From: Escherichia phage ph0011
Sequence record: OP557969.1
Direction: 5' to 3' (one strand)
DNA length: 64,000 bases
The notes beneath the pieces were generated by a model. It was not told the DNA's origin, made no database searches, and saw nothing but the letters and a program-made list of their open reading frames with translations. The translations under genes were made by a program, and so were the position numbers. Of this stretch, positions 17,238 through 58,778 are shown piece by piece (position 1 is the first letter of the stretch; every line of letters starts with the position of its first letter).

Positions 17238-17240
17238 TAT

Positions 17241-21753: not shown

Positions 21754-22347
21754 ATGACAAAGATTGAATTAGATGAAGCGATTAAAGGTTTATCTAATGT
21801 GTGTTTTAGTGGCGGGGCAGCAGGTGCTGACCGCCTTTTTTCTATCTATGCAAAAGATAATGGATTTGAAGTTGTTAATTTTTCATTTAAAGGTCATGAG
21901 CATAGTGTAGATGAAAATACTATATTAGAAATACCATCCAATATTCTATCTGATATTTCTATATTAAAGCAACTAAACATTGCATGTTACTCGTTGCAGA
22001 GAAAAGTACCAAAGCCTGGTTCTTATGTTTATAACTTACTTGCAAGGAATAGTTATCAAATACTTAATACAGAAAGAATATATTGTATTGCAAATATTAC
22101 ATCACCAACTAAGGTGAGTGGTGGTACTGCATGGGCAGTGCAGATGTACATGGATTCAGTTGAAAATCCTGAAATTTATTGTTATGATATGAATTCACGT
22201 TCTGTATTTTATTTTGACACAGTACTGAAAGAGTTTACTGAAACATTCTCAATACCAGAACCACACGGTAACTGGACTGGGATTGGTTCACGTAATGCTA
22301 CACAAAAACACATGGAACATTTTATTACATTTTTCAAGGAAGTATAA
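21754..22347 (+). CDS. SLOG/Rossmann-like protein (DprA/LOG-like glycine motif)
   Basis: 197 aa; FSGGAAGADR and later SGGTAWAV glycine-rich motifs; stop overlaps td start (TAATG). Confidence 0.4.
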   Translation: MTKIELDEAIKGLSNVCFSGGAAGADRLFSIYAKDNGFEVVNFSFKGHEHSVDENTILEIPSNILSDISILKQLNIACYSLQRKVPKPGSYVYNLLARNSYQILNTERIYCIANITSPTKVSGGTAWAVQMYMDSVENPEIYCYDMNSRSVFYFDTVLKEFTETFSIPEPHGNWTGIGSRNATQKHMEHFITFFKEV

Positions 22348-37057: not shown

Positions 37058-37166
37058 AATATTTCCCTTTTATGAGTGAATGTCATATACCAATATTTAT
37101 CAGTACGAAATACATTTCGTCACCATTAATAAATAAATGAAAGTTCACTACTAAAAGGGCTTAACA

Positions 37167-37664
37167 ATGGCATTAAGATCAAAAAACTTTCTTTTTAAAA
37201 GAAAAACAAAAGATGGTTCATGGCAAGATTTTCCTGAATCTGACAGTTGGTATCCAGCCCAATTGGATTATCAATGGAATGAACAAACATTACCACTACC
37301 AAGCGGTGGATATTATGGCAGCACTACAGGTTTGCATACCATTTCATTTACACTACGTAATTTCATTGGAAGAATTTATGTATTAGCAACATTAGCCAGC
37401 AATCCAACAGATGATGATTGGTTCCCAATTAAATTCACTGAAAGTTGTAAATATTATCTAGAATTTACGGATATGGTTATTTTAAATCCAAACGGTGGTG
37501 ATTTGATTAGACAACAAGGAACTACCGGAACATTTGCAGAAACATTAACAGGTAACTTTACATATCTTAAAGTTGGTATTGACCGAGATTATATCAGTAA
37601 GTACCCGTCTGATGTACAAAAAAGTTTAGCAGGTAAACTAGAACAAATTTTAATTAACTACTAA
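37167..37664 (+). CDS. hypothetical protein
   Basis: 165 aa; divergent from the fibre operon; no motif recognised. Confidence 0.55.
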   Translation: MALRSKNFLFKRKTKDGSWQDFPESDSWYPAQLDYQWNEQTLPLPSGGYYGSTTGLHTISFTLRNFIGRIYVLATLASNPTDDDWFPIKFTESCKYYLEFTDMVILNPNGGDLIRQQGTTGTFAETLTGNFTYLKVGIDRDYISKYPSDVQKSLAGKLEQILINY

Positions 37665-37673: not shown

Positions 37674-38282
37674 ATGAAATTAGAAGCAGAACAACCAAAA
37701 CTATTTGTTAAAGGTCATGTCCTAATTACTGACGTTACTGATCCATCAAATCAAAAAATCGTTTTAGATAAATCTAACGCTATTCACCCAGAAAATATGA
37801 GTACTGCAATTGCTAATGCGTTAGCATACAATCAAGATAGTACCAGTATTCCTATTGGTTCAATTAGCGAAATGCGTTTTGGTAATGGTGGTACTGTAGT
37901 GTTAAGTACTGGGCGAGTCACGTACAAAAAACCACGCGTGACTTCCTTTGGTGGATTGTATTCACAAACATATTTAAAAAAAATCAACCCAAGAATTTCT
38001 GCTGGTATTGATTCACAGTATAATAACATCACAACAGTTCATATCCCAGGACAATCATATACTGATATTGTATGTATTTGTACACTTGGTTTAGGTGAAC
38101 CATCAGACCAAGGTGTAAGTTCAGGTACAAGTATGGATGGTACATATGTATTTGATGAATTGGGGTTATATACTGATGGTGATAGTGGTATTCCATTGAC
38201 ACATATCATTTTTCACCCAGTTGAGAAAAGTGCTAACCGTGTGTTACAAATTAAATACACAGTTCGTGTACAACTACAATAA
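37674..38282 (+). CDS. hypothetical protein
   Basis: 202 aa; AAGGAT RBS; no motif recognised. Confidence 0.55.
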   Translation: MKLEAEQPKLFVKGHVLITDVTDPSNQKIVLDKSNAIHPENMSTAIANALAYNQDSTSIPIGSISEMRFGNGGTVVLSTGRVTYKKPRVTSFGGLYSQTYLKKINPRISAGIDSQYNNITTVHIPGQSYTDIVCICTLGLGEPSDQGVSSGTSMDGTYVFDELGLYTDGDSGIPLTHIIFHPVEKSANRVLQIKYTVRVQLQ

Positions 38283-38294: not shown

Positions 38295-39395
38295 ATGAGT
38301 GTAAGTTATACAATTTATAGAAGCAATGGTAGTGTTTATGCTACCATTCCAAATAATGTCATATTGGGGCCAAACCAACCAGGAAGTAACCCAGTTCCGT
38401 TGAATTTCGTCGGAAGAAATAAAGTAAGTTATGGACAAGCATGGAATGAAAACTTTTTACATTTAGTTGAGAATTTTAGTTCGGCTTCAGCACCACGCGG
38501 TAATGTGAACGGTCAACTATGGTACAGAAATGCTGGCAGTACTGGTGAATTATTGATATCATTGGTTGACAATGCTAGACAACCATCAGATGTTGTGAGT
38601 GAAGCTGAGTGGGCGTCTATTCCAATGATTTCTGTGTTTAATACCGTACCAGATGGTGAAAATAGTGTTATGGGTCGTATGGTATTAACCAGTAATGGTG
38701 ACTCACTTCGTGTATTAATGAAAAATAAAGAATGGCGTGAAATTCAAACATCACGCCCTGAGAATAAAGAATATACATCATTATTGGATATTAACTATGA
38801 TAATGGTAAAAAATATATTGAGTTTACACAAAATAATAGTACCAAGCCACTAGCATATTTTAACTTAGGAGGAACGTCACAAGTCGATACTAACAACTGG
38901 ACAACAGTAACTAACGGAACTGGTGTTTTTGAATTTGGTAGTAACTATTTCTATGAATTAAAAATTATGATTAGAGAGGTAAGCGATTCAACAGGTGAAA
39001 TTGTATCAGTTCCACATAATTCAAAAACATTTTTAATCAAAGGTCAATTTTATGTAGATAACCAAGGTACGTTTGTCCCTGGTTCTGTGGGTGCAAGTCA
39101 AATGCCAGACCCCCGCAGGATTACACATCTAGAAACCATTAAAGATGTCATTACCAGTAGTCGCCCGAACTGGGATGTGAACATGGTTATCAATGATGTA
39201 GATCCATCACTACCTAATCCAAACGGCACATCTAAAGCAGATTATGAAAACTGGGTTATTAACTCATTGAACTCTAATAAAAACTTGGGATTTAGAGTTG
39301 ATGGTAGTATTAGCAATCTTGCACCAGGTGAATCTGTGAAATTACAAGCATCAGTGTTGTTAAACATTACAGGTATTCCAATTATTGGTGTATAA
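38295..39395 (+). CDS. hypothetical protein (structural candidate)
   Basis: 366 aa; N/S/T-rich; no motif recognised. Confidence 0.55.
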   Translation: MSVSYTIYRSNGSVYATIPNNVILGPNQPGSNPVPLNFVGRNKVSYGQAWNENFLHLVENFSSASAPRGNVNGQLWYRNAGSTGELLISLVDNARQPSDVVSEAEWASIPMISVFNTVPDGENSVMGRMVLTSNGDSLRVLMKNKEWREIQTSRPENKEYTSLLDINYDNGKKYIEFTQNNSTKPLAYFNLGGTSQVDTNNWTTVTNGTGVFEFGSNYFYELKIMIREVSDSTGEIVSVPHNSKTFLIKGQFYVDNQGTFVPGSVGASQMPDPRRITHLETIKDVITSSRPNWDVNMVINDVDPSLPNPNGTSKADYENWVINSLNSNKNLGFRVDGSISNLAPGESVKLQASVLLNITGIPIIGV

Positions 39396-42839: not shown

Positions 42840-45128
42840 ATGAATCTTACTCAATTGTTCAAAAAAAGCGACGAACTAGCAACATCCCTAGGTCATACTT
42901 TCTTGACTATTGACCATGTGAGTGCTACAGTACTGACTATTGATAGTATCAAGGGCGTGTTCGAAGAAATGAACATCGATGCTGACAAATTGCATAGTCG
43001 ACTGATGAACTATCTTAAAAATACAACGGTTCCAAGTGCACCAAAAAGTACACTCGATGAAGATGCTAATCGCACTTCACTTCTGGTGAACCGTGTTGTA
43101 CATGAGCTTTCGAAAAAATCAGTCATTGAACAACTAAAAAGTGATGATTTTTCGATTGATGCATATTTTGTTCTATTTGAATGTTTATCATTCCCAAACA
43201 CTGCACTTGAAGCTGCTTTGAAAGAAGAAGGCGTTAGCTGTACCGAAGCTGCTCGTGCACTACAGAAACACGTTGAGGCACTGGAAAAGGGTATCAACCT
43301 TCAAAGTATCAATGACGAACCTACTGGAGATAAAAAAGTGGCTCAACCACAGCAATCATCTAAACAAAAAGGTTTAGCAGACTATACAACAAACCTAACG
43401 GCACTTGCAAAAGAAGGCAAACTAGACCCAATGATTGGTCGCCAAAAAGAGCTATCTGCATTGATTGAGACTCTTGCTCGCAAAACCAAAAAGAATGCCA
43501 TCCTGACTGGTGAAGCTGGTGTTGGTAAAACACAAATCATCGACGGTCTTGCACAAGCAATTGCTGATGGTAATGTACCAGAGCACTTAAAAGATGTTGA
43601 AATTCTTTCCCTAAATGTTGGTGCGTTGACTGCTGGGACTAAGTATCGTGGTGAATTTGAGGAACGTATCGATAATTTACTAAAAGAACTAAAGAAACGT
43701 GAAAACACAATTGTTTTCATTGATGAAATCCATATTATGGTCGGAGCAGGTTCTGCAAGCAACGGTTCAATGGACATGAGCAATATGCTTAAACCAGCAC
43801 TATCACGTGGTGAGATTCGTGTAATTGGTGCAACAACATACGAAGAATATCGTAAAAACATCGAGAAAGATAGTGCATTGACTCGTCGTTTTATGAAAAT
43901 TGATGTTGTTGAACCGTCAATCGATGAAACTCGTGAAATTGTGAACGGTCTTAAATCAACTTATGAAAAATTCCATAACGTTGAGTTTACAAAAGATGCA
44001 ATGGATGCAGTAATTTCTCTCAGTGAGAAGTTCTTGAAAAATAAACACTTCCCAGATAAAGCAATTGACCTAATGGATGCTGCTGCTGCGAAAGTGCGTT
44101 CACGTGATAATAATAGTAAACTAATTACAGAGAATTTGATTCAAGAAGTTGTTGCTGGTATTGCTAACTTGGATATCAACGTGGTTGCATGTACAGAAAG
44201 TGAACGTATGCGTAATCTACCAGATGCACTACGTTCACGTGTTTACGGACAAGAAGAAGCGATTCAAAAATTGGTTGATAATGTAATGGTTGCTCGTGCT
44301 GGTCTACGTGATAAGTCGAGTGTTCAGGGTGCTTTTATGTTTGTTGGTCCGTCAGGTACTGGTAAAACAGAAATTACAAAAGCATTAGCTGAAGCAACGG
44401 GTTCAGAGCTTGTTCGTTTTGATATGTCTGAGTTTTCTCAAGAACATACTGTTTCAAAACTAATTGGTTCCCCTCCAGGTTATGTTGGTCACGATTCTGG
44501 TAATGGTTTGCTATTGGATAAGATTGAGCAGTTTCCTAATGCCATTCTACTACTCGATGAAATCGAGAAAGCAGATCGTAAAGTACTACTAACCTTCCTA
44601 CAGGTTCTGGACGAAGGACGTTTGACTGGCTCACAAGGTAAAACTGTTTACTTCAATAACGTAACTGTTATTATGACAACCAACCTTGGTGCGGCTGATT
44701 CAACAAAGCGTAGTATTGGGATGAGTGGTAGTGAAAGTGCACAAGACAAGGCAATTAAAGCATTCTTACCACCAGAATTCATTAACCGTATTGACAGTAT
44801 TGTTACGTTTAATGAACTAAGTAGTGAAGCAATTGACAGTATCATTGATAAATTCATGGGAAGTTTGAATGAACAAGTTAAACATCGCAACGTAAAAGTT
44901 TCACTAACGAAAGCTGCACGTGGATGGCTTGCAAAAAATGGTGTTCAGGTAGGTATGGGTGCACGACCAATGAAACGTACAATTGAACAAAACATTCGCG
45001 TACCACTAGCGAAGGAAATGTTGTGTGGTTCACTGGTAAATGGTGGTAACATTACATTTGATGTTATCAATGACAAACTTGGTATTAAACCAAAACGTAC
45101 TAAAGCAGTTGAAAAAACACTAGCTTAA
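42840..45128 (+). CDS. clpA: ClpA-like AAA+ unfoldase (Clp_N domain, D1 and D2 ATPase modules)
   Basis: 762 aa; GGAGAA RBS; D1 Walker A GEAGVGKT and Walker B FIDEIH; D2 Walker A GPSGTGKTE and Walker B LLLDEIEKA; ClpP-docking-type loop SIGM; collinear with E. coli ClpA. Confidence 0.85.
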   Translation: MNLTQLFKKSDELATSLGHTFLTIDHVSATVLTIDSIKGVFEEMNIDADKLHSRLMNYLKNTTVPSAPKSTLDEDANRTSLLVNRVVHELSKKSVIEQLKSDDFSIDAYFVLFECLSFPNTALEAALKEEGVSCTEAARALQKHVEALEKGINLQSINDEPTGDKKVAQPQQSSKQKGLADYTTNLTALAKEGKLDPMIGRQKELSALIETLARKTKKNAILTGEAGVGKTQIIDGLAQAIADGNVPEHLKDVEILSLNVGALTAGTKYRGEFEERIDNLLKELKKRENTIVFIDEIHIMVGAGSASNGSMDMSNMLKPALSRGEIRVIGATTYEEYRKNIEKDSALTRRFMKIDVVEPSIDETREIVNGLKSTYEKFHNVEFTKDAMDAVISLSEKFLKNKHFPDKAIDLMDAAAAKVRSRDNNSKLITENLIQEVVAGIANLDINVVACTESERMRNLPDALRSRVYGQEEAIQKLVDNVMVARAGLRDKSSVQGAFMFVGPSGTGKTEITKALAEATGSELVRFDMSEFSQEHTVSKLIGSPPGYVGHDSGNGLLLDKIEQFPNAILLLDEIEKADRKVLLTFLQVLDEGRLTGSQGKTVYFNNVTVIMTTNLGAADSTKRSIGMSGSESAQDKAIKAFLPPEFINRIDSIVTFNELSSEAIDSIIDKFMGSLNEQVKHRNVKVSLTKAARGWLAKNGVQVGMGARPMKRTIEQNIRVPLAKEMLCGSLVNGGNITFDVINDKLGIKPKRTKAVEKTLA

Positions 45129-45137
45129 AAAACAAAA

Positions 45138-45162
45138 GGAGAGCATTTTGCTCTCCTTTTTT
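45138..45162. terminator. bidirectional terminator between convergent genes
   Basis: GGAGAGC-ATTTT-GCTCTCC flanked by A-run and T6; ClpA-like stop 45128, giant gene stop 45164. Confidence 0.6.
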
Positions 45163-45163
45163 A

Positions 45164-48100
45164 TTACTTAACTATTAATATTTTTTGAATATCATTACCA
45201 CGAACTCGTAGACTGTTAGTATACACAGAAAGGTCTATTGTATAACTATTTTGAGTATAACGTTTAAACTTATCATAACCGCCCAAATTAATTCCGTTGA
45301 AAGAATATGTAGTATCATGTTTGAAATCGTGTTCTGCACTGTACATTACTCCACGGAGTAAGTTGTTTGTATTTCTAACTTCAACTTTTTCATATCCAAT
45401 CGATATAATGTCACTCTTGTTAGCAGCGGAGCCTGATAACACATTATTTCTAACATTATAATGGCTTACGGAAAGAGGTTGTGCTACATAAGTTGTGTTT
45501 TCTTCACTAATGGTTGTTATGTTAGTGATGGTAGCGTCAGCCACATCAATATACATACTATCAACCATTGGATATTCATACACCCACACACCTTCATTAT
45601 TTTTTGTCGGTTTGATATCTTTCGCATCATATTCAATCACGTTAATTTCTAAACAATCCGGCATTTTAGTTCTTACTAATTCACTAAGAACACCTTCCCC
45701 TGTAATTGGTAGATTATAACCGTTGTCTATAGTAATACCATCATCATTAAATATTTCATTTGATACAACCCAAACATCAACATCATCAGGTGTTACTCCG
45801 TCATTATACTTACCACCATTTAAAGTAGTATCATAAAAAACGTCATAATTAATCACATCAATGGTGTAATTTCTGTTTTGCTCATATAATTTAATATCAC
45901 CCTTGGTAAATTCTGGGTCAGCAAATGTTCTAACACGAACAATGTTCAATGCAAGATGTTGTACTGGCTGATTCAGTTGTCCAAGTGTGATGTTATCATA
46001 TCGAAGAACATTACCAGAACTATCAACCAACTCAATCGTTTCTTTTCCTGTAGTTCTTACAGTGAATAGAATAGGAGTTGTATTATGTTTGATATTAGAC
46101 ACACGTAATATGGTTTCCCATGTACGATTTTGATATCGAATAAAATCTTCACCATCCGGTGTGAAAATCATCACCTTATCACCATCAGATAAGTCACTGT
46201 CAACGATTTCAGCCTCAGTTAAGCTATTAATAGAACGTACACGATAGAAATATTTTTCTTCAAACGGTGATGCCGTTTTATTAATATCATGTTCAATCTT
46301 AGCATATGAAGGAATACTAACAATTGCTTCTGTATGTTTATATGGGTTGATAATTGCCATACCCTCGGTTTTATATCTGCTATTATTACGCAATTGCACT
46401 AGTGATTCAGTATCAAATCCATAACCATCAACAGTGAATCTAATATGCCCAACTGCACGACTAGCTGGATTTATTTCAGATATATCGATAATATAAGGAT
46501 CAACTTCATCATCTTTAACTTCCCATTTGATAGCTGAAGTTTGTGATTCTAATGCAAGGTTGTCAAATGCATTCATATCATTGAAGAACTTAGCTTCAGC
46601 AATACTATCAATTATATATTGATAATCCGAATACATAGGGTTATTTTGATCTTGTGGTAAATCATCTAGATTTATTTCAGCAAGTTTAATCATTTCACCA
46701 TTAGTAATGAAATAATCTTCCATGAAATCATCAATACTTTTATCATCTGGTATACTTTGGTATTCACCATTGATATTTAAGTAGACATGTTTTCTTGGCA
46801 TCATAGTAATAGCATAGATATCAATAGGTGTTTTTGAAAGAATTTCTTCTGCTTTTTCATACATATCAGCAGAGTCTTTATCAAACAACCCTCTCATGGC
46901 TGCCAGTACATGGACCGCATCGGAATAGAAACGTGTATCACCACCAATTTCATCATAACGATAAACATATACACCGTATTCAACTTCAAGTTTCACTTTA
47001 ATATCATGTTCAGATGCATCTGGATATTTTTCTGTAATAAAAGAAATATATTTTTCATATAATTCTTTACTTATTTCAAAATATCCATAGTTATAATCAT
47101 TACTTGAAGAAAAACCTAATGGTAGTCTAGTACTTGGGTTATCATTATAAACCAAACCACTAAATCCACAGCCAACCTCATCATGAATCTTATCATCACT
47201 GATATCTTTATAAAGTTTCAAACGGTTTGCTAATGTATTGTACTGAACATAGTGTCGAAGGTCAGTAAACATTTCATTATGCGTTGATTCGTTATAAATG
47301 CGTTCAAGTGTAGCAGTAAATTCATCAGTTGCTTCTAAATCATCAGCATGTTCTTTATACCACTGGTTTACACCATTTGCAGTTCCTAGTGTTACATCTA
47401 ATTCTGGATAGTACGTTTGTAATAGATACGCATTAACCAAGTCAAATGATTGTTCATTATACACAGGGTAAGAATATATATAACGTTGTAATTCATAGGT
47501 ATTAACAGAATCTTTTTCATTTGATTGATACTTATTATTAACACTAATCAACTCATTAATGTTTGCCAAATCTTTATTCGGTTTACATTGAATATTATCA
47601 TAATGCATAATAATATCAATTTCTTGAAATCTTCTATTTGGTGCAATAAAATCACTAGGCAGAGAACCTACTTTCTCCCATTTTTTAGTGGTTTCATTAT
47701 ATTGAGCGTACTCATAATCCCAAATATCCTTTTCAGTTTTAACCCACGAACCATCAACAAAAATATACCCATTAGGATCTAAATCATTACAAAGACCTTT
47801 GATTAAGTCATCATCAGACGTTTTTTGTTCTATCTGTGAACGGATTTTTGTACGATATGGTTTCACCTCTTCAAAGTACTCAACAATTTGGTTAATCAAA
47901 TTATCATTTGAATAGTTTTGTACCAAAGATTGTTCCAAACCAACAATATAGATATAGGATGTTTTAAATACCCAATCAACAACACCCTGTTCTACGTGTA
48001 CATATTTGACCATATCAAAAACAATTTCACTTTGGTGTAAATCGAAAGAATTTTTTAGCAAAGCAAGTGCTTTTCTAATATTAATTTCACGATTACTAAG

Positions 48101-51100
48101 TGAACCGTCCTCATTATGAACATTATAATCTACATAAAACAAATCGTTAAGCTCAATAGTACTACGTTGTCGCCCAATAGCTTTCCAATAAATTGAATCA
48201 CGTGATTGAGATTTGATATATAAAGTCCAAATGTTTTCACTATCTGTGACTCTAATTATATCACCAACTTGATAGTTTTTAGCATTTGCTTCTTCTAAAC
48301 TTATCTCTTGGATGTAAGCAGTTTTGCTATCATACCCAACATCATACCAATCTGCATAAGACCAGTATTGAGTCATATCTAATGATGTTCCGAGTGATTC
48401 AACATAATCCGATTGCTTAATCATTTTATGTTGTCCTTCACCTTTATTTTCTAAAGTTATAGTAACAACACTACCTGCATTAGCTGGACTATTCATTAAC
48501 TGAATATATCCGTTTTCATCGAAGTGAATAAAATAAACAGCACTAGTTGATAATGGAGTCGGTAGATAACCGCTAGAACTTAAAATAACAGCGTCATTTT
48601 CTTTAAATTTATCCTTTTCAACTGCAATTACAAGTTCATTATTATAAGTTAATACACGGAACGAAACCTCATTAGGGTTAACTTCTGTAGTTTTAACATT
48701 AAACACATCTTCCATAACAACACTATTAGTAGTTATGTTTTGTGATCTATAATAATTATTTGCACTTTCTACAAAGTTTCTACGTGCCTCTATTATATTC
48801 TGGAACCAAGTTTTATTAGAGCCTAAACCAGTGTCAACTTCTGGATATAATAAATCTACAACCTTACCTGACTTCGTAGTTTCTTGACCAATTAGAGAGT
48901 TCCACATAGAGTCCCAAATTAGTGGGTTAAAGTTGTAACTTTCACCCTCTTTGCAAAGTTGATATTGGTCATGTTTAACAACTTCTGTATTGTCCATATA
49001 GTAAGAAATAGTCAAAACACTAGTATCATCATTAACTTCAAACTGCATATTACTAAGAATAAAAGAGTTTTCATTAATTGGTGCGAACCAAGGAATGTTC
49101 AACTGTGATGGATCTTTAATAATACGTGCAATGTCAGTACATGATTTTGTTCTGGTATGAATAGGTGGTACATAAATTGTATCACGTACCCAGAAATAGT
49201 ATTTTGTTACATAACTGTCAGTGGAGCTATCATATTCCAAAAATGTACTATAATTATCTTCAAGTGCTGTTCCACTTGGAAGATACATATTATTATTTTT
49301 GTTTTTCTTAGCAACATCTTTACAGTACTTATCCCAGTTATATGGTTCTACTGGTGAACAAACCCATTCCAACACATCAATAGTACTATGTGGCAACAAA
49401 CGACCCCAGTTGTAACGTTTATATTCATTGGTTGCGTCAATATCAACATTTCCATCTGCATCATAAATGGCACGAGTATAATCCAAATAAAAAGCGGTGC
49501 TAGTGTTCCACCATACTTGACCAACTTTTTCAGCACCCCACGCCTGAACCAATTCGCCATTGCTATTATATTGAGCAGGGTCGATTGGTGAAGTATATGT
49601 TACGTTTTGCATTGCTGCACCAGGAATAACACCATTAATTGGGTCATAAACATTTAGATATAATGCAGTAATGTTTGTACGTTCATCATATGTAGTTGGA
49701 CGTTCAAACAAAGTACTTTGTGGTGCTTTAAAACTATATTTTTTATCAATATATGCTTGACGCTCTTCAGTACTCACAAAACGCGAAACATAACGATACA
49801 AACGAGGGCGTGTATCTGGGTCAGTAAATTCGATATTAATTGAAGTATCAAATGGAACCACCATAACTTTGGAATCATCCCCAGCAGTATAATATTGACT
49901 TTCTACTGTTAAAGTATCTGGCATAAAGTTAGTTTCGTCCACAAAATAATAGTAATCACCATCTTCAAGAGGGATATCATCAGATAGAGTTACTTTACAG
50001 AATTTCTCAGCGTAAACATCTGTGGTTTCGATTGGTGTAATAGAAACCATTTTAACATTAGTGTCAATTAATTCAAAAATGTTCCATAACCCATTTCCAT
50101 CTTTGAACATCCATACTGATTCAGGATTTTCACCTTTACCATTGATATACAACATACGGTCATTGAATGCAGTACTGAAATCTTTCGTAGTATAAGATAC
50201 TTCATCTAATGTAACTGGACCAATATCAGGCAGTTGGATGTGTTCACTTCTACCACTACGCATTGGGAAAGAGAATTTACCATTTGGACGAGTAATCCAT
50301 TGTGGGTCTTTTCCTTGTTCACCAAAGAATACAATATTGTTTCCATTACCATTTGATGTTGCATTTTCATCAAAAGACATCATTTGTGGCTGCTGCTTAA
50401 ATTGGTCATTAATCAATTTAAATTGAAGGTTTTTCTTTCCATCGATGTTACCATATGTACCAACTTTAAACGCCCATTCTTGTAATGCTTTATATTCATC
50501 AGTATCATAGGATTTAGAAACACGAAGAACACGTTCTAAAACTTGGTTTGTACCTTTGTCATGAATAAATCCTTTATAGAAATCAACACGACTTACATCA
50601 CTACTAATCATACGTTGTAGATAATCACGAGATTGATAACCAATCAAATGGCTAGACAATTCTTGTAATTGTACATCGCTAACGGGATGTTCATTGTCAT
50701 AGTAATGTTGAAAATCTGTTACTAGAGTTTCAAATGATGGTATTGTACCAGATTCCAAAATAATAAAACCAGGTGCTTGTAATCTACCAGTCCATGAACC
50801 AGTAATGTACCCATACATTTTAATTAGTTCCTGGATAGAACCATAAGTTGGTTGATAGATATAATCACCAAAAATAGTCTTATCATCAAATATAACAGCA
50901 TGTTCATATGAACACAAACTTAAGCGGATTAATGCAATACGCTTATTAGAATCGGTTGTTCTAACAGTGAATATATTACCAATACGTGAAGTTTCGATTT
51001 CATATTGACGAATACCTTGGTTATTATCATCAAGCAATGACCACACACCACCATTATTTTGTGTAATAGACTGTACTGAACCAAAATCCGAACCAAACTT

Positions 51101-54100
51101 AGCATTTGCAGCACTTGGTGTACAAGAGATAAATTCGCCAGTTACCAGAGGACTCTGACTCCATATCACAAAATCTTTAGCAATAGTGTGCCAATCTTGC
51201 TGAATACCATCTTGATTAACATCTTCGAAAATCCAGCCATGTTCTTTAAGATACTCACCATATCCACAAATAAAAGTGTATACTTCTTGATAACTATTGA
51301 AAATAGTCCCATATTCAATAGAAGCCTCAGACTTCCATTCATTATAATGAACAATATTACGGTTTTCCAATTTAAGAGTTACTTTTCTTCCATTTTTTAC
51401 TGGAAGTTTATATTTAAATTTCGCACCAACCAAATCATATCCATCAATTTGATATGCACTACCATTCCATGTAATTTTGATGGCACTCATCTGTTCATCG
51501 CGAATGTTATTCGAACGCACCAGACCAATCGTTTGGTTTTCTTGTGAAATAAGACCAAATGATTTAGCGTTGAATGTTAATTGATCTGCTTTAGTAAAGC
51601 CACCAATTTTATGTCCCACATTTACGTAAGACGAACGTACAACATCTCCATATTTTGTAGTAATATTTTTATTTTGATACATCAAATAATCACTAACAAA
51701 CATTTGATATCCAATTGTTCTTGTGTTATCTTCACCATGAACAGTTGTGTTTTTATCAAAATTCACACGATTGCGGGTATCCCCGTACAGAAATTGTTCA
51801 CCAGTGGTGATAATTTCTTTCAAATTGTCATTACGGGTATCCCAATAATAGTTGGCAAATTGTGCAGGTTTAGCTTTATACAAAAGTAACATTTGGTCAT
51901 ATGCAAACAATGTGGTGTTCATATACGTAAATTCCATATCACCCATGTCGCCATACGCCCAAGGTTCTGCTCGGTGAACTAAAGATCCAGACACTAATCC
52001 TAAAACTTCAGGAGCAATATACTCAACCACACAAATATCTACACCGGATGATGTTTTATTTCCAGTTTTAGTAATTTTAAATGGTTGTACACCAAATCTT
52101 TTATATTTGTCATACTGACCACGGCGGTCGCCATATAAAATTGTCCCAGTACTACTATCGCCGATTGTATCATTTACATCCCAAAGTCCACTAGGAACCA
52201 AATCACCTTGTTCATCAGTTACAAGTGCCTCATATACATAAACTACATCACCATCACGTTCACCAACTTGGACAGCGGTTGGTTCATACTCTTGGTTCCA
52301 CCAAGTAGGACGTTGTGTAAACCCAAACATTTCCCATGGATGTGTAGCAGGGCGATATGTACCATATTGATCAGTATAGATTGCACGCCATGAACCACGA
52401 GCAGGAATTTCAGTACTTTTACCATCAACAACATAATAGGTTCCAGTATAGTTCCATGTTCTCCAGTTATTAGGATCATAATCATGTGTACTATTACTAA
52501 TACCATTAGATGCAGTGAAGTTAATATAACCACGTAATAGAAGTGTTTGTTTTTCTTCTGCACTATATTCAGTTTTTGTAAAATATGGTGTAGGGAAAAG
52601 ATCATCACTATTCAATACAGGGACATAATCAACATCTTTGAATTTATTGTCAATACTATTGAAAATTCTATTTTCAAGTTCATATACAACATCATCCATT
52701 TTATCAACACCATTGATAACACGGTATGCTTTAGAAATAATACCAGTATGGCTGATATTATAATAGCTAGGTTTACTACCAGCAGTTAGGAATGTTGCTT
52801 TCTCAGGAACGTATGCTTGTAGAATACCTAAAAACTGTGGAGTTGGTGGTATAAATGCACGAATAAGACCAGATGTACTACCCACATTGTCATAATAGAA
52901 TGGGAATGAACTATCACGACCCATATTAATAGTTGCCAAAATAGAATCAACGATGTTAGCTGCACTATTTTGTAAAAAGTTAGTTGGGTTTTCATTGTAC
53001 ATTCTAAGCATTTGTGTATTAAATTTATTAATGAATCTGAAATATTCAGATTGCATAAACATAGTTGCTTCAAATAAATCAATATCTTCATTTGCAGTAT
53101 GAGCCATCAATGGGAGCATAGAAGCTTCATTTTGAATAATTTTAGTTCCTACTCCATTATTCACTAATCCCTTAGCTAAACGTTCTTCATAATCGTTGAA
53201 GTCATCAGCATAACCACTAGTGATATTCTGTTGAATAATATCCTGAAAATGAAGAGTATAGTCTCCTTGATTAATATATATAATATTGGAGTTATATGGG
53301 TTATTTTGTAAGTTAATTGGAACTTCATATGCACCTAATTCTTTATCAGGTGTTACAGTACTGCTATAAGTTCTAATTTGAATAACAGAATCATCATCCA
53401 ATTCAACACTGTTATCGATTGTGATACTTTGCACTTGACCTTTTAATACATTCTTGGTATATTTGGAGATATTAACACCATCAACAACAACTTCAATAAT
53501 ATCAGAGTCATTGTCTAAAACTTTTTGTGCCAATTCAAAAGTATGGTCATATTTTAAAACCTGAATACCATCACCACTAATTTGATGCCAGTCCAAATAT
53601 GTTTCACGTTCAGCTTTATAGTACTGATATGTTTTATCAACTTCGATGACATATGCATACATACCCTCGACTGGTTCTTTAAACAGTTCCATATCATAAA
53701 CAGAACTAAAGACTCGATACATATCAGTACGTTTGACTTGAGGTGTCTGTTTTACAAATTGTTTAGAGAATTCTTTTGAACGCACCCAATCAGTTTGAAG
53801 ATTCATTTTATTATTTTCATCAATGATGTTATAATAATACAAACCACCGATTTCAACTTCAACACCAAGATGGTCATATGTATAACGTTGTGATTGTAAA
53901 AAGTTTTCATAAGTGTAATAGTTATAATCACCAAGTTCAATGTTATACCCATATACACTATCAGCCGCGTAGTTATAGTTGATTTTAAATCCAAATAATG
54001 GTGAACCTTTAAATGTACTGGATGGGTACGTGGTGCTGTTATCTAGTTTGATTCCATTACGATCATAAAGTTGGAATTGAGGAAAGACGTTAACACTTGG

Positions 54101-55165
54101 CTTCGCCTGTGCACGAACCCATAATGTTCCATTCCAATACATAGAATTATTGCCGTACTCATTTCCTTTTGTGACCAAAACTACGTCACCATTTTGTGGT
54201 TCACCACTTGGACGGGACTCAGTTTCTTCATTTGGATCTAGTGCTAAGCCATAAACGCGTGTACCATCTTGCATTTTTTTAACATACACTTTATAAATTC
54301 TATTGTTTTCACCATCATTACCAATACTGGTGAATAGAATACGCATACCATCTTGTGGAATAATACCATCAATGCGAATACCGCTATTGACATCTTTTTG
54401 AATAATATCTTCAGGTTTGATACTATCAGAAAAAAGTTCAACTGTTCCACGGAATTTTGTACCGTAGTTAATTAGCTCGATATTTTTATTATATTCGATA
54501 ATTGGTGCACGAGCACGAATAAAACGAGAATCTTGCATTAGCTCTTCAGTCAAGATAGAACCGTCTTCTAGTGTTTCACCTAAAGTATACCAAAAGTTTT
54601 GCAAAGACCATGTATTACCATTAAGTGCTCCACGTTCCATTACAATGTAATCAGGTGTAATGATATTATAAGAGTTTTTGGTATCCCAAAGATACGAACT
54701 AAAATTGTTCATTTTATTTGGGTTAATTGCAGGAGTCCATGCATAAAACTTACCGTTAAATAAACGACTTTCATTATCGGTTAGTGCTCCGTAATGACTC
54801 ATGTATCCAACAAGATCATCATAAAATTGAATTGAACGAATTGTTGAATCATCATTTTTAGAGACATAAGCAGTGGACAACTGATATAGTTGACGTGCAA
54901 CAGAACTTTCATGCAAGAAGATATTACCAGCGGCAGCCGGAGAACCCATGTCACCAATATAACCGTCAACCAATTCGTTTTCAGCCGGATTAAACCATTG
55001 TTGAATAACATCATCACTGACTTTTTGAATATCTTCTAAGCCTTGCATCCACTCAGGCAATCTTTTGATAAAAAGCTTTTTCTGTACTGCTTCAGCCATC
55101 TGTGTAGGTTGAAACTTAAAATTATTAGTCATTTTTTCTGGACTCCATATAATTCGTTCATTCAT
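45164..55165 (-). CDS. giant virion protein, 3333 aa (baseplate-associated by synteny; function unknown)
   Basis: Uninterrupted 10-kb frame in an AT-rich genome; ATG 55165; directly downstream of gp6-like gene in the baseplate operon; no motif recognised by eye. Confidence 0.8.
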   Translation of the reverse strand: MNERIIWSPEKMTNNFKFQPTQMAEAVQKKLFIKRLPEWMQGLEDIQKVSDDVIQQWFNPAENELVDGYIGDMGSPAAAGNIFLHESSVARQLYQLSTAYVSKNDDSTIRSIQFYDDLVGYMSHYGALTDNESRLFNGKFYAWTPAINPNKMNNFSSYLWDTKNSYNIITPDYIVMERGALNGNTWSLQNFWYTLGETLEDGSILTEELMQDSRFIRARAPIIEYNKNIELINYGTKFRGTVELFSDSIKPEDIIQKDVNSGIRIDGIIPQDGMRILFTSIGNDGENNRIYKVYVKKMQDGTRVYGLALDPNEETESRPSGEPQNGDVVLVTKGNEYGNNSMYWNGTLWVRAQAKPSVNVFPQFQLYDRNGIKLDNSTTYPSSTFKGSPLFGFKINYNYAADSVYGYNIELGDYNYYTYENFLQSQRYTYDHLGVEVEIGGLYYYNIIDENNKMNLQTDWVRSKEFSKQFVKQTPQVKRTDMYRVFSSVYDMELFKEPVEGMYAYVIEVDKTYQYYKAERETYLDWHQISGDGIQVLKYDHTFELAQKVLDNDSDIIEVVVDGVNISKYTKNVLKGQVQSITIDNSVELDDDSVIQIRTYSSTVTPDKELGAYEVPINLQNNPYNSNIIYINQGDYTLHFQDIIQQNITSGYADDFNDYEERLAKGLVNNGVGTKIIQNEASMLPLMAHTANEDIDLFEATMFMQSEYFRFINKFNTQMLRMYNENPTNFLQNSAANIVDSILATINMGRDSSFPFYYDNVGSTSGLIRAFIPPTPQFLGILQAYVPEKATFLTAGSKPSYYNISHTGIISKAYRVINGVDKMDDVVYELENRIFNSIDNKFKDVDYVPVLNSDDLFPTPYFTKTEYSAEEKQTLLLRGYINFTASNGISNSTHDYDPNNWRTWNYTGTYYVVDGKSTEIPARGSWRAIYTDQYGTYRPATHPWEMFGFTQRPTWWNQEYEPTAVQVGERDGDVVYVYEALVTDEQGDLVPSGLWDVNDTIGDSSTGTILYGDRRGQYDKYKRFGVQPFKITKTGNKTSSGVDICVVEYIAPEVLGLVSGSLVHRAEPWAYGDMGDMEFTYMNTTLFAYDQMLLLYKAKPAQFANYYWDTRNDNLKEIITTGEQFLYGDTRNRVNFDKNTTVHGEDNTRTIGYQMFVSDYLMYQNKNITTKYGDVVRSSYVNVGHKIGGFTKADQLTFNAKSFGLISQENQTIGLVRSNNIRDEQMSAIKITWNGSAYQIDGYDLVGAKFKYKLPVKNGRKVTLKLENRNIVHYNEWKSEASIEYGTIFNSYQEVYTFICGYGEYLKEHGWIFEDVNQDGIQQDWHTIAKDFVIWSQSPLVTGEFISCTPSAANAKFGSDFGSVQSITQNNGGVWSLLDDNNQGIRQYEIETSRIGNIFTVRTTDSNKRIALIRLSLCSYEHAVIFDDKTIFGDYIYQPTYGSIQELIKMYGYITGSWTGRLQAPGFIILESGTIPSFETLVTDFQHYYDNEHPVSDVQLQELSSHLIGYQSRDYLQRMISSDVSRVDFYKGFIHDKGTNQVLERVLRVSKSYDTDEYKALQEWAFKVGTYGNIDGKKNLQFKLINDQFKQQPQMMSFDENATSNGNGNNIVFFGEQGKDPQWITRPNGKFSFPMRSGRSEHIQLPDIGPVTLDEVSYTTKDFSTAFNDRMLYINGKGENPESVWMFKDGNGLWNIFELIDTNVKMVSITPIETTDVYAEKFCKVTLSDDIPLEDGDYYYFVDETNFMPDTLTVESQYYTAGDDSKVMVVPFDTSINIEFTDPDTRPRLYRYVSRFVSTEERQAYIDKKYSFKAPQSTLFERPTTYDERTNITALYLNVYDPINGVIPGAAMQNVTYTSPIDPAQYNSNGELVQAWGAEKVGQVWWNTSTAFYLDYTRAIYDADGNVDIDATNEYKRYNWGRLLPHSTIDVLEWVCSPVEPYNWDKYCKDVAKKNKNNNMYLPSGTALEDNYSTFLEYDSSTDSYVTKYYFWVRDTIYVPPIHTRTKSCTDIARIIKDPSQLNIPWFAPINENSFILSNMQFEVNDDTSVLTISYYMDNTEVVKHDQYQLCKEGESYNFNPLIWDSMWNSLIGQETTKSGKVVDLLYPEVDTGLGSNKTWFQNIIEARRNFVESANNYYRSQNITTNSVVMEDVFNVKTTEVNPNEVSFRVLTYNNELVIAVEKDKFKENDAVILSSSGYLPTPLSTSAVYFIHFDENGYIQLMNSPANAGSVVTITLENKGEGQHKMIKQSDYVESLGTSLDMTQYWSYADWYDVGYDSKTAYIQEISLEEANAKNYQVGDIIRVTDSENIWTLYIKSQSRDSIYWKAIGRQRSTIELNDLFYVDYNVHNEDGSLSNREINIRKALALLKNSFDLHQSEIVFDMVKYVHVEQGVVDWVFKTSYIYIVGLEQSLVQNYSNDNLINQIVEYFEEVKPYRTKIRSQIEQKTSDDDLIKGLCNDLDPNGYIFVDGSWVKTEKDIWDYEYAQYNETTKKWEKVGSLPSDFIAPNRRFQEIDIIMHYDNIQCKPNKDLANINELISVNNKYQSNEKDSVNTYELQRYIYSYPVYNEQSFDLVNAYLLQTYYPELDVTLGTANGVNQWYKEHADDLEATDEFTATLERIYNESTHNEMFTDLRHYVQYNTLANRLKLYKDISDDKIHDEVGCGFSGLVYNDNPSTRLPLGFSSSNDYNYGYFEISKELYEKYISFITEKYPDASEHDIKVKLEVEYGVYVYRYDEIGGDTRFYSDAVHVLAAMRGLFDKDSADMYEKAEEILSKTPIDIYAITMMPRKHVYLNINGEYQSIPDDKSIDDFMEDYFITNGEMIKLAEINLDDLPQDQNNPMYSDYQYIIDSIAEAKFFNDMNAFDNLALESQTSAIKWEVKDDEVDPYIIDISEINPASRAVGHIRFTVDGYGFDTESLVQLRNNSRYKTEGMAIINPYKHTEAIVSIPSYAKIEHDINKTASPFEEKYFYRVRSINSLTEAEIVDSDLSDGDKVMIFTPDGEDFIRYQNRTWETILRVSNIKHNTTPILFTVRTTGKETIELVDSSGNVLRYDNITLGQLNQPVQHLALNIVRVRTFADPEFTKGDIKLYEQNRNYTIDVINYDVFYDTTLNGGKYNDGVTPDDVDVWVVSNEIFNDDGITIDNGYNLPITGEGVLSELVRTKMPDCLEINVIEYDAKDIKPTKNNEGVWVYEYPMVDSMYIDVADATITNITTISEENTTYVAQPLSVSHYNVRNNVLSGSAANKSDIISIGYEKVEVRNTNNLLRGVMYSAEHDFKHDTTYSFNGINLGGYDKFKRYTQNSYTIDLSVYTNSLRVRGNDIQKILIVK

Positions 55166-55183
55166 TTGATTTATTTATTAGAT

Positions 55184-55207
55184 AAAAAAGGCGTTCCGAA
55201 GAACGCC
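55184..55207 (-). terminator. hairpin (minus-strand terminator or attenuator candidate)
   Basis: GGCGTTC-CGAA-GAACGCC with T6 on the minus strand, between gp6-like stop and giant gene start. Confidence 0.4.
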
Positions 55208-55214: not shown

Positions 55215-58200
55215 TTAAGAACCGATATTAATATTACTTTTAGCTAATGAGTTAACTATTTGAACATTTTCAACCGATGCAGTACTCAAGAATATTTGGT
55301 CCGAGCGTGAAGGTATTTCAAACAAAGAACCAAATTTGGAATTCGGATTTTGTGCAACTATAACAATTGTACTAATATGTCTTCCTAGTTGGGAATGTAT
55401 ATAAGTACATAAATCGGTATAATAGAAACTTTCACCAAAATCCCAGTTATCAACATTAAAATATTCATTCGTTAATGCTATCACATTTTGACGAATTTCA
55501 TCATCACTCATCGTGCTATTTGGTAGCTTAACAACTTTAAAATCAGCTTTATAATCTTCCGCAGCACTGTTCCCAAATAATGGTAGATACTCTGCACTAT
55601 GCCAGATAATACTATCACTGATGACTATTTTTTGTTCGACATCTTTGAACATATTTTTCAATTCAACTGATGTTGGAGGCTTCGGCATACTTCCAACTGC
55701 ATTATTTTTTAACCACACATCAACTTCAGTTTTGTATGAGTTTGTTAGTACATACATATCAATTAGGTTTGTTCTACTAGGATCAATACGGTTATCATCA
55801 GGTGCATAATGTTTCCAATGGAAATCTATACTGGTACGAGCATTCGTCTTAACCGTATATTGCGATGTAACATCTTTATAACCATAATAATCCAACTTCT
55901 GATTCTCATCAGCATTAGTACCCATGTTATTAATTGAACGATAAAACGCAAGTTCAGGACTAATAGTTCCGGTATCATCGGAATATGTCAAATTACTGAT
56001 TAATTGCCCCAAACGATCATTGTTATTACCAACAGTTTGTTCAATAAAATAATATTTACCATCATATTTAAAACACACTAAGAATCCAGAGCCTTTACTA
56101 TACAATCCACTCAATGTGTTAGAACGAATTGCATTATTTCGTACAAATTCGGTTCTTTTATATGTATTAGGTTCAGCTAATGCTTGTTCCATCGTATAAG
56201 ACCATGACGTATCCAGTAGTGAGAATGTATCATTTGGTAATGACAGTACTGAAATTGTAAAATCATTATTTTCCTTGAATATCAATATACCACCGTATTT
56301 TAATGCATCAGAACCTGACCATTCTGGAACAATATCTTTAAATTGATTCGGTTCCAATGGTATACCATTACTATCTACTTTTCTAGAGGTGACAATAATA
56401 CGAGAACCATCCAGATATCCATTTTCTTGCTGTATTGTGTCATAAATTTGAAAATCTATATTACTTGTTAGACCTGAGTTACTTGTGCTTGTTGTGTTGG
56501 ATGATAAAATTTCAATTTTATCACTTTGAACTGTACCAGAACTAATATCAGTTATTTTTTTGGATGAAACGAAATAGAATTTGACTTTATTACCACCAAC
56601 AAATATATATTCAATACCATTTGCATCAAATTCCCAGGTTTCTGCTGTATATTTAACGTTTATTACAACTAAAACTTCGTGACCATTGTAAACAATAGTA
56701 TCATCATTTGTACTAATTTCTACTGGAACCCATGAAGTTGTTTCTTTATCATGAACAATAACAAAATCAGTTTTTTTATCAAGCATTGCAGAAATAGACT
56801 GAACCTCAACCGAATCAAATCTTGTTCTATATGGTAATATATAATCAATTGCTTGCATTTTACTAGAAACTGGCGTACTTAATACATAAAACCCATTATC
56901 TAAAACACTAATAACACTTGCCCATATAGTTGTTGTAGAGTTGGAGAACTTAATTAAAGTGCCAACCTGATACGAATTATATACTGTCCCAGATGATCCC
57001 ATGATTCTTCCATATGTATTGGTAGTATAATTCGAATTATAAACAGGTGTCCATGATTGTTGAAGTTCAATTCCAATAGTATTTGGTGGATATGCTTGAT
57101 AACGTTGTATCACAGCATTTTCACCAATTAGTGGTTGAATATTGTCAATTACGATACTGGCATTTGTTTTTGTAGTTGGTAGTAATAAAGATTTATTAAA
57201 TTTAGTATTTTCTTTATATAATGCACCATCATCACTAAAAACATCAGTATTTTGATATTTTCCAGTAGGGTCATTAATATCAATGAATCGAGACTGTCCA
57301 CTATAAATTCTATTAATAGCTTTTGACTTAAGTACAGTGTTACCTAAACTGAGTGGAGCAATATTATAATCTTCACCATTAACAAAACGGTTTTGTGTGT
57401 AATACATTTGTGGTGCTCGTGCTTTAATTTGCTCAATAGTCTCAGCACTTTGTGCACGATCTGATTCGTATTGTAATGAAAAGCGTACATCTAGTGTGCT
57501 TGATTCATAACTGGATTGTGTTTTAGTACGATACGTATATTTTACACTTTTATTTTGAATTTCTGACGTTTTGATGTTATATGTTTTACCATTACTAACA
57601 CGATACCACACACGGAATGTACCACGCGGAACAACACCACTTCTGGAATCTGGATATTTAATTGTTATTTGATCTTTATCACGAGTTGTAACTGCAAAAA
57701 TTGTTTTAAGCTGGCGATTGACCGTGTTGTATGCAATACTTTCCATGGATGGAACTTTTGTCCATTTGGTACGAACAATACCATCTTCATTGATTTCTTG
57801 TACCCAAACATCAGTTTCATTTATGTTATCAACGTTTACCTCTTGTATTCTATTTTCTTCACGAATATTATATTGGTAATCTTGATATGTCAATGTTCCT
57901 TGGATAAAATACACAAAAAAACCAGTATTTGGTGAACTGAATCCATTACCATCATTTTGGTACACAATATATTTTTGCTCTTGTGGTTCTGGATGTCTCT
58001 CTTCAACACCAACAGATGTAATGTCAGGGTTAACCACTTCAAATGTCATTGATTCACCATTAACAGTTGCAACAAATGGTATACTTGGAGCACTCATAGG
58101 AATAGTATTCATTCGATAAAGCTGACGTGACACCCCATTGACATCAATACGTTTAACTGGATTACCGAACTGATTAGTACTAACAAATGAACTATTCATA

Positions 58201-58676
58201 ACAAGAATAAAGTTTTCATACCAATTCGCATCCATTGGGTCGTTCCAACGAATAATTTTATCTTTTAATGATTCATTAAAACTATTACGAACATCTTGGT
58301 TTGTTTTAATTTCTGTTAATTTTGCTACTGCACGACCTGGATATGAGCGACGTGGTGTATACGAAATCATTTTGGCTAATTTTAGAACCGATGCACGGCG
58401 TGTAGCAGTATCTAAGAAGTTTTCACGCGTGTTCAAATCCATACGAAATGCCAAGTTCTGACCCAGCATTGAAATGGTATCAAGAATAAAAATAAACTGA
58501 TCGTTTTCAATCCAGTCATTAAATGAATCAGGATACGTTTGACGCAAATAATCAATCATACTCTGGCGAATAGTATCAAAGTCAAATGCCGTGAGATTGA
58601 TTTTATAAAAACTTTCATATACTTGTGTCCAATCTTCACCACTATATAAATTTGATTGCCTTTTTTGTTGTGACAT
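55215..58676 (-). CDS. baseplate wedge protein, gp6 / Baseplate-J-like (enlarged)
   Basis: 1153 aa; N-terminal region (FDFDTIRQSMIDYL...ILDTISMLGQNLAF) resembles the gp6/gpJ N-terminus; follows gp25-like gene as in P2/T4 wedge modules. Confidence 0.6.
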   Translation of the reverse strand: MSQQKRQSNLYSGEDWTQVYESFYKINLTAFDFDTIRQSMIDYLRQTYPDSFNDWIENDQFIFILDTISMLGQNLAFRMDLNTRENFLDTATRRASVLKLAKMISYTPRRSYPGRAVAKLTEIKTNQDVRNSFNESLKDKIIRWNDPMDANWYENFILVMNSSFVSTNQFGNPVKRIDVNGVSRQLYRMNTIPMSAPSIPFVATVNGESMTFEVVNPDITSVGVEERHPEPQEQKYIVYQNDGNGFSSPNTGFFVYFIQGTLTYQDYQYNIREENRIQEVNVDNINETDVWVQEINEDGIVRTKWTKVPSMESIAYNTVNRQLKTIFAVTTRDKDQITIKYPDSRSGVVPRGTFRVWYRVSNGKTYNIKTSEIQNKSVKYTYRTKTQSSYESSTLDVRFSLQYESDRAQSAETIEQIKARAPQMYYTQNRFVNGEDYNIAPLSLGNTVLKSKAINRIYSGQSRFIDINDPTGKYQNTDVFSDDGALYKENTKFNKSLLLPTTKTNASIVIDNIQPLIGENAVIQRYQAYPPNTIGIELQQSWTPVYNSNYTTNTYGRIMGSSGTVYNSYQVGTLIKFSNSTTTIWASVISVLDNGFYVLSTPVSSKMQAIDYILPYRTRFDSVEVQSISAMLDKKTDFVIVHDKETTSWVPVEISTNDDTIVYNGHEVLVVINVKYTAETWEFDANGIEYIFVGGNKVKFYFVSSKKITDISSGTVQSDKIEILSSNTTSTSNSGLTSNIDFQIYDTIQQENGYLDGSRIIVTSRKVDSNGIPLEPNQFKDIVPEWSGSDALKYGGILIFKENNDFTISVLSLPNDTFSLLDTSWSYTMEQALAEPNTYKRTEFVRNNAIRSNTLSGLYSKGSGFLVCFKYDGKYYFIEQTVGNNNDRLGQLISNLTYSDDTGTISPELAFYRSINNMGTNADENQKLDYYGYKDVTSQYTVKTNARTSIDFHWKHYAPDDNRIDPSRTNLIDMYVLTNSYKTEVDVWLKNNAVGSMPKPPTSVELKNMFKDVEQKIVISDSIIWHSAEYLPLFGNSAAEDYKADFKVVKLPNSTMSDDEIRQNVIALTNEYFNVDNWDFGESFYYTDLCTYIHSQLGRHISTIVIVAQNPNSKFGSLFEIPSRSDQIFLSTASVENVQIVNSLAKSNINIGS

Positions 58677-58744
58677 AATTTATTCCTTTAAATCAGTAAA
58701 GTACTAGTTCAGTACTGGGAATTATATAGAAATATTTATTCAAA

Positions 58745-58773
58745 AAGAAAAGCACCCCGAAGAGTGCTTTTTT
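58745..58773 (-). terminator. terminator-like hairpin after gp25-like gene
   Basis: AAGCAC...GTGCTT hairpin with flanking A/T runs, downstream of stop at 58779. Confidence 0.35.
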
Positions 58774-58778
58774 AATAT

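Follow-up and report, generated by a model that had tools for sequence, protein, structure and literature searches.

The DNA analysed here is a stretch of 64 kb (the window) from Escherichia phage ph0011 (OP557969.1), a relative of the Asteriusvirus jumbo coliphages 121Q, PBECO4 and phAPEC6, with a G+C content of ∼34%. Its minus strand carries a giant open reading frame (ORF; 45164..55165) of 3333 codons without interruption, a length far beyond chance expectation. This is the largest gene in Rak2-like jumbo phage genomes, and its closest nucleotide match is phage UE-S1 (89.5% identity). The original prediction had described a single frame of 3333 amino acids (aa) lying behind gp25-like and gp6-like wedge genes, and both points were confirmed, the gene order by Pfam, PHROG and hhalign, with the start moved to Met12. 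Reading along the minus strand, the giant gene is preceded by a gp5/VgrG-like hub spike with a C-terminal lysozyme (59713..62376, 887 aa; Pfam Phage_base_V, DUF2345 and Phage_lysozyme), a separate lysozyme (59188..59676, 162 aa; Pfam), a gp25-like sheath initiator (58779..59174, 131 aa; Pfam GPW_gp25, PF04965, 5.6e-9) and a gp6-like inner wedge gene (55215..58676, 1153 aa). The last of these matches phrog_10646 and phrog_219 (E 3e-21) and aligns by hhalign with residues 26–113 of T4 gp6 (E 4.8e-5).

The ATG at 55132 (Met12 of the ORF) is invariant in 49 of 49 aligned relatives, a conserved GGAG sits 10 nucleotides (nt) 5′ of it, and orthologues annotated elsewhere begin at the equivalent codon. 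Since the ATG is invariant and the GGAG conserved, the true start is most likely Met12 (45164..55132, minus strand, in keeping with the family profile match described below), which would give a product of 3322 aa and 382 kDa. The 11 in-frame codons that run from the first ATG to Met12 (55133..55165, minus strand) form an extension that is absent or unconserved in relatives, and are probably an untranslated leader overlapping the ribosome-binding site. The protein is acidic by computed composition, and sequence computation gave no transmembrane-like segment.

The protein matches phrog_10938 over its full length (E = 0, 5595 bits, residues 12–3330 against profile positions 1–3324), which at the sequence level assigns it to the Rak2-like giant virion structural protein family, PHROG 10938. 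Homologues fall into ∼190 clusters in the protein collection, with at least 351 confirmed matches in viral contigs, and identity to the full-length clusters ranges from 91% down to 44%. The 120 best-scoring homologues are 3131–5756 aa long and a few lineages have versions of 2200–2450 aa; no short version of the family was found down to the detection limit (the Xoo-sp13 homologue has 3245 aa). Cultured members are Asteriusvirus, RaK2/K64-1 (the RaK2 orthologue being ORF070w), GAP32, CBB, Erwinia, Yersinia and Serratia relatives, a Vibrio phage, PA5oct, Atu_ph07, Phosso, SCTP-2 and Xanthomonas and Stenotrophomonas jumbo phages. Annotation of the family among cultured phages never goes past ‘virion structural protein’. 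A ‘D-alanyl-D-alanine carboxypeptidase’ label on the EJP2 orthologue is regarded as an annotation artefact, since Pfam gives it no support. In the literature we found neither a role nor an anatomy for the giant family, nor a high-resolution baseplate structure of any Rak2-like jumbo phage.

The gene is real and constrained. A single intact copy is present in at least 34 phage records (coverage of at least 80%), and the ratio of non-synonymous to synonymous substitution rates (dN/dS) against the JP4 orthologue is 0.07 over the full length, at a dS of 0.66, with values of 0.054 for the core and 0.115 for the C-terminal quarter. No internal repeats were found. Furthermore, the orthologues are virion proteins. 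Mass spectrometry of phAPEC6 virions detected gp245 (381.88 kDa, 17 unique peptides), listed directly after the 131-kDa ‘baseplate wedge’ gp244 (PMC7247149), and CBB virions yielded CBB_236 with 21 peptides, its neighbour CBB_237 being a ‘baseplate wedge’ protein (PMC5259590). The PA5oct orthologue EST35_0128 likewise carries an electrospray ionization tandem mass spectrometry (ESI-MS/MS) flag, and the gp6-like protein was also seen by mass spectrometry in phAPEC6 and CBB. The two findings that would have spoken against the original prediction, a frame broken by frameshifts or stops and a product missing from virions, thus run counter to the data at hand. In phAPEC6 the gp6-like protein gave 21 peptides, more than the giant, although the latter is three times larger; the counts, which can be read only qualitatively, fit fewer copies of the giant than of the gp6-like protein.

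In the annotation of the Salmonella phages SD-1_S14, SD-2_S15 and SD-6_S16 (OR699181–OR699183), three or four separate hypothetical proteins occupy the orthologous region, and for two of these three records the alignment to the giant falls into three pieces. The split probably reflects an assembly or sequencing error in the 10-kb gene, or else a real disruption.

The order hub, gp25-like, gp6-like (∼1150 aa), giant was retained in ∼70 of 79 fetched viral-contig loci and occurs also in RaK2, PA5oct, Vibrio phage 2.275.O and Xoo-sp13. Across the 79 loci, the start of the giant usually abuts or overlaps the gp6-like stop. Distant relatives carry a conserved gene of ∼200 aa directly 3′ of the giant, followed by one more gene. 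In PA5oct this second gene, EST35_0125, contains Pfam Gp10_C (1e-23), and in the viral contig L029 (IMGVR_UViG_3300045988_163091) the gene directly after the giant's scaffold part matches Pfam T4_baseplate. Since a ∼200-aa gene and then a gp10-like gene come after the giant, the ancestral order parallels T4 genes 6, 7, 8/9 and 10. The giant thus occupies the T4 gp7 position that the original prediction had pointed to, lying directly after the gp6-like gene in ∼70 divergent lineages and before the ∼200-aa and gp10-like genes.

In the window the two partner genes have moved ∼7 kb from the giant and are inverted. One encodes a conserved protein of 202 aa (37674..38282, plus strand; 35–52% identity, E down to 1e-62), whose homologue lies directly 3′ of the giant in 12 distant loci, including that of PA5oct (EST35_0126, detected by mass spectrometry). 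It is better conserved than the giant, has an FGNGG motif and a beta-rich sequence, and gave no match in Pfam, the PDB or the T4 proteins; no N-terminal helix-turn-helix is visible in its sequence. We regard it as a candidate for a baseplate protein of the gp8/gp9 position. The other partner gene encodes a virion protein of 366 aa (38295..39395, plus strand), the N-terminal ∼60–75 aa of which match the second gene 3′ of the giant in relatives (BLAST), the position that the Gp10_C-bearing EST35_0125 has in PA5oct. A 165-aa gene (37167..37664, plus strand) belongs to the same small operon.

The anatomy of the giant was mapped by local alignments onto its relatives. At the N-terminus, a helix-turn-helix is predicted at ORF residues ∼20–58 (54992..55108, minus strand), with model helices at 9–18, 21–30 and 33–47 (predicted local distance difference test (pLDDT) scores of 54–75) and an invariant Leu-Pro motif (L36 and P37); this is a candidate core-bundle element. 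A scaffold of ∼2350 aa (residues 12–2358; 48092..55132, minus strand), delimited by the coverage map, the alignments and the end of the L029 gene, is common to all relatives down to ∼22% identity. It contains insertion hot spots at residues ∼150–175, 750, 1250, 1450, 1725–1775 and 2175–2225. The first of these holds an additional 214 aa in most relatives. The major plug-in site, at residues ∼1725–1775 (49841..49993, minus strand), is short in the window and 430–1080 aa long in relatives, where the inserts hold FG-GAP_2 and CBM_5_12. Variable sites and tails of distant relatives contain FG-GAP repeats, CBM_5_12, a T7 tail-fibre N-terminal domain and a lactonase-like propeller, and YHYH, TIG, Laminin_G_3, GDSL lipase and RCC1 were further modules among the precomputed matches. 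The modules at the variable sites of relatives are of exposed, surface-binding types; in the giant of the present phage no receptor-binding domain was recognised.

A junction domain of ∼90 aa follows (residues 2361–2453; 47807..48085, minus strand), recognised in the alignment by an invariant run, VKPYRTKIRSQIE, which is the most conserved of the whole protein. The remaining 880 aa (residues 2454–3333; 45167..47806, minus strand) form a lineage-specific C-terminal module, or tail, found only in relatives of at least 44% identity and missing from distant ones. Its identity to RaK2 is 44–51%, against 60–77% for the core, so that it diverges about twice as fast, and it gave no Pfam, PDB or T4 match. 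In L029 the giant is naturally split into two genes (5930..8743 and 9977..17347). The scaffold gene there encodes 2457 aa and ends at query residue 2358, and a separate upstream gene encodes 938 aa, of which residues 4–91 correspond to the junction domain (E 2e-7). This makes the last third of the giant a unit that can be detached, with the build of an N-terminally anchored fibre. Two further contigs, L028 and L025, have versions of 2219 and 2319 aa that end near query residue 2100–2150, a point that, judged from these alignments, would be another module boundary.

An AlphaFold2 model of residues 12–1211 (51533..55132, minus strand), computed from a 58-sequence alignment, reached a mean pLDDT of 84.5 and a predicted template modelling (pTM) score of 0.81 and represents a compact multidomain monomer. 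BFVD models of distant members superpose on it, with template modelling (TM) scores of 0.76 for Atu_ph07 (22% identity) and 0.84 for a 34%-identity relative. No solved structure matched the model as a whole; the fold of this region is robustly predicted and without a solved counterpart. Domain-level fold matches were to the N-terminal attachment domains of tailspikes and fibres (CBA120 TSP4 residues 1–250, T7 gp17 and several podovirus fibres), such fibre-like matches spanning only ∼90–190 residues. Significant BFVD matches beyond the family were likewise tail-fibre proteins. Weak fold matches beyond the family were to gp6-type proteins and to phiKZ peripheral baseplate proteins.

The original prediction had recognised no domain by eye, and profile searches of its segments likewise returned no known domain. 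Profiles of the giant and its family gave nothing against Pfam, NCBIfam, PDB sequences and PDB profiles, and neither Gp10_C nor a similar Pfam domain is present in the giant. GCN5 matches at E ∼0.15 were rejected as noise. Three family segments compared by hhalign with T4 gp5–gp12 and gp53 were negative (probabilities ≤1%); the positive control, the gp6-like N-terminus against T4 gp6, worked.

A gp7-type gene follows a gp6-type gene in P2, Mu and the type VI secretion system, and the giant is placed in the same way, directly after the gp6-like gene in the order gp25, gp6, gp7. P1 gp16 is called a gp7 equivalent by its position after the gp6 homologue and by structure, HHsearch and HHpred having given no match, and the giant resembles it in being invisible to comparison of the HHsearch type with T4 gp7. 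Residues 1–48 of XM1 gp17 have a helix-turn-helix architecture (PMC10457771), as is predicted at the N-terminus of the giant. Minimal gp7-type proteins (the 242-aa XM1 gp17, P1 gp16, P2 gpI and TssG) measure 170–370 aa, whereas ∼3300 aa follow the helix-turn-helix of the giant. Moreover, its N-terminus lacks the weak similarity to the N-terminus of the partner gp6 that is seen in P1 and XM1. The rest of a gp7-type protein is an evolutionary hotspot at which spikes or fibres are bound (XM1, PMC10457771; AlgoCIS, PMC8894135). The gp7-like part of Alg12, Pvc12 and Afp12 is such a wedge hotspot, on the exposed lateral surface, and binds different fibres (PMC8894135). The variable plug-in sites and tails of the giant are comparable; however, gp7-like and gp6-like parts are fused in those proteins, and here the gp6-like protein and the giant are separate genes.

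Compared with T4 gp7 (1032 aa, which forms the (gp6)2-gp7 heterotrimer), the giant is likewise large and multidomain, comes after a gp6-type gene and before gp8/9- and gp10-type genes, and would be expected at the baseplate periphery, binding gp10-type and fibre-connecting proteins. It differs in that its family is three to five times larger, in its scaffold with plug-in sites and detachable C-terminal module, and in the failure of profile and fold comparison to detect similarity; a core-bundle role of the giant is a proposal. Among branching-fibre adaptors, those close to it are the TSP4 N-terminal domains of CBA120, the T7 gp17 N-terminus and the RaK2 gp528 anchor. The phiKZ peripheral baseplate proteins PHIKZ087 and PHIKZ027 (PDB 9xqs and 9xqd) belong to another clade and have ∼900–960 aa, and the similarity is too weak for homology.

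We propose that the giant is the outer (peripheral) wedge protein of the Rak2-like/Asteriusvirus baseplate, in the gp7/TssG/gpI position, and that it works like, and holds the place of, a gp7-type protein, a reading to which we give a probability of roughly 0.6. One copy per wedge would amount to six per virion. The N-terminal helices would anchor the protein to the gp6-like dimer under gp25, and the ∼2350-aa scaffold, as a single chain, would build an enlarged rim, a task shared by several proteins in T4. The plug-in sites and the tail would carry lineage-specific modules facing outward or downward: carbohydrate-binding or propeller modules in environmental relatives and, in the enterobacterial lineage, the 880-aa tail joined via the ∼90-aa junction domain. 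Scaffold and tail would probably serve as a mount for, or set the position of, the fibre network as well as the 202-aa and gp10-type proteins; via the rim, attachment would be signalled inwards to gp6, gp25 and the sheath. The RaK2 fibre network is attached via a 105-aa anchor of gp528 to a baseplate partner (PMC10253068). The variable modules of the giant family fit the description of the gp7-like part as a hotspot of re-engineering and fibre binding (PMC8894135). The original prediction had also raised an expansion of the periphery or a fibre-scaffolding protein. The carbohydrate-binding, FG-GAP and T7-fibre modules of relatives, the L029 fission and the fold matches to fibre N-termini argue for this; the docking of fibres itself is a step that we infer.

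Several results weigh against placing the giant in the wedge as a gp7-type protein. Neither by profile nor by fold was the giant found to resemble T4 gp7 or any protein of the TssG or gpI type, although hhalign, used in the same way, found T4 gp6 with the neighbouring gene, and hhalign of the N-terminus of the giant against that of the gp6-like protein was negative. A co-fold of two gp6-like N-termini and one giant N-terminus, fused by linkers and based on a 30-sequence genome-paired alignment, was of too low a confidence (pLDDT 41, pTM 0.21) to weigh on either side. The mass spectrometry places the orthologues in virions, not specifically in the baseplate, and the conserved 202-aa neighbour, which has the size of a minimal gp7, could in principle hold the gp7 role. 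Membership of the giant in the gp7 family is unproven. Because position and helix-turn-helix fit and the similarity tests are negative, we call it gp7-like in place and do not file it in that family.

The 202-aa neighbour also figures in the main rival reading, which we hold to be rather unlikely: the giant would be one more protein of the baseplate periphery or the fibre network, docked outside the wedge, and another protein such as this partner would supply the third chain of the heterotrimer. In T4, P1 and XM1, however, the gp7-type gene comes directly after the gp6-type gene, and in the giant family the slot after the gp6-like gene is always taken by the giant, whose start codon often overlaps the gp6-like stop. 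The 202-aa protein, for its part, is beta-rich, shows no N-terminal helix-turn-helix and sits at the gp8/gp9 position before the gp10-like gene. Fold matches to fibre N-terminal domains and the fibre-like fission product in L029 would suit a fibre, whisker or receptor-binding protein, that is, a long adhesin on the baseplate or tail, yet we consider this improbable. Residues 12–1211 are modelled as a compact multidomain monomer and not as a fibrous repeat, internal repeats are lacking and the fibre-like matches are short. PA5oct has a family member, and the available part of its description mentions no tail hairs. Furthermore, that the giant is strictly coupled to the gp6-like gene speaks for a structural role in the wedge.

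The original prediction had also considered a fusion of peripheral components. Taken literally, with homologues of T4 gp7, gp8, gp9 and further peripheral proteins joined in one chain, it would agree with the operon position of T4 genes 7–9 and with the separate C-terminal gene of one lineage, which shows that fusion or fission occurs. Since no region of the giant matches T4 gp5–gp12 by profile or fold, this origin is not supported and is largely refuted, leaving it a very small chance. We attach just as little weight to an internal or ejected virion protein, like the 3500-aa N4 virion RNA polymerase, with a coincidental baseplate neighbourhood. Mass spectrometry shows presence in the virion only, and PHROG files the family under ‘head and packaging’, but no polymerase or other catalytic domain was found in Pfam, NCBIfam and PDB-sequence searches at permissive thresholds, the giant stays coupled to the gp6-like gene throughout the clade without exception, and relatives bear modules of extracellular type (CBM, FG-GAP and fibre domains).

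The family was already known from databases, as PHROG 10938, and as virion-associated. What is new, on our best reading, is an extreme, modular occupant of the outer wedge position that is an orphan by sequence and by fold. A bolder extension of the outer wedge assignment is possible though doubtful: throughout a supergroup of jumbo phages, more or less the whole baseplate periphery might consist of six copies of one 250–650 kDa chain, a plug-in chassis with folds without a solved counterpart and with glycan-binding or fibre-like modules that are set into it at fixed sites or attached by way of the conserved junction domain, which would be an independent solution to the task of T4 gp7–gp12 and not a divergent gp7. 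Were this true, host recognition would be built directly into the wedge protein. The baseplate recognises the host and triggers tail contraction, and among the Rak2-like jumbo phages are candidates for use in therapy against E. coli, Klebsiella, Salmonella and Pseudomonas. The assignment to the gp7 slot, the mapped anatomy and the 1200-residue model make the giant directly testable, and map and model together are a starting point for cryo-electron microscopy fitting and for host-range engineering at the plug-in sites. The family also opens the question of how far a conserved wedge component can expand.

The intergenic region 5′ of the giant gene (55170..55207, minus strand) was examined in the sequence and in a four-phage alignment. 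A GC hairpin (GGCGTTC-TTCG-GAACGCC) with a run of six T residues lies at 55184–55207, after the gp6-like stop, and a ATAAATAAA box at 55170–55178 (minus strand) stands between the hairpin and the GGAG and is kept upstream of the giant in JP4, RaK2 and GAP32. This 9-mer has only two copies in the 64 kb, 55170..55178 on the minus strand and 37129..37137 on the plus strand, a count not above chance (4.5 expected), and both lie 30–40 nt before a start codon, that of the giant gene and that of the operon of the 165-, 202- and 366-aa genes. Hairpin and box may act as a terminator plus late promoter, and the box may be a late-promoter element common to both halves of the split baseplate module.

At the other end, a bidirectional terminator-like hairpin with a 12-bp stem and T-runs on both strands (45134..45160) separates the giant from a convergent gene for a ClpB/ClpA-like double AAA+ protein (42840..45128, plus strand, 762 aa); two terminator-like hairpins of such a kind were found against 0.2 expected. 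The convergent arrangement is kept in JP4, phAPEC6, 121Q, RaK2, GAP32 and CBB but not in distant relatives. One may speculate that the ClpB-like protein acts as a chaperone that helps very large structural proteins to fold or assemble.

Upstream, the gp25-like and gp6-like genes of JP4 are separated by a gene for an HNH endonuclease (7721..8485 in its locus, L001), where the window has only a spacer of ∼100 nt (58677..58778), so that a mobile endonuclease gene is present or absent here between genomes. In 121Q the gap between the two genes is similarly wide to that of JP4.

Further observations concern other parts of the window. A 514-aa ORF (62387..63931) was considered as a truncated gene and this was rejected, as the ORF runs past the window edge. 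A thymidylate synthase ORF (22347..23987, plus strand) encodes 546 aa, against 309 aa in RaK2, and its Pfam match is split by an in-frame insert of ∼265 aa, at roughly residues 119–381; PHROG families of homing endonucleases match this insert (‘HNH endonuclease’, E 2e-16). We considered and rejected an intein or a group I intron as the explanation of this long ORF, Rfam showing no intron and inspection by eye no canonical intein ends. Finally, an 1834-aa ORF (27242..32746, minus strand) contains a bactofilin-like beta-helical stretch (residues 653–746; Pfam Bactofilin, 2.8e-9) and is probably a long fibre protein of the neighbouring fibre cluster.

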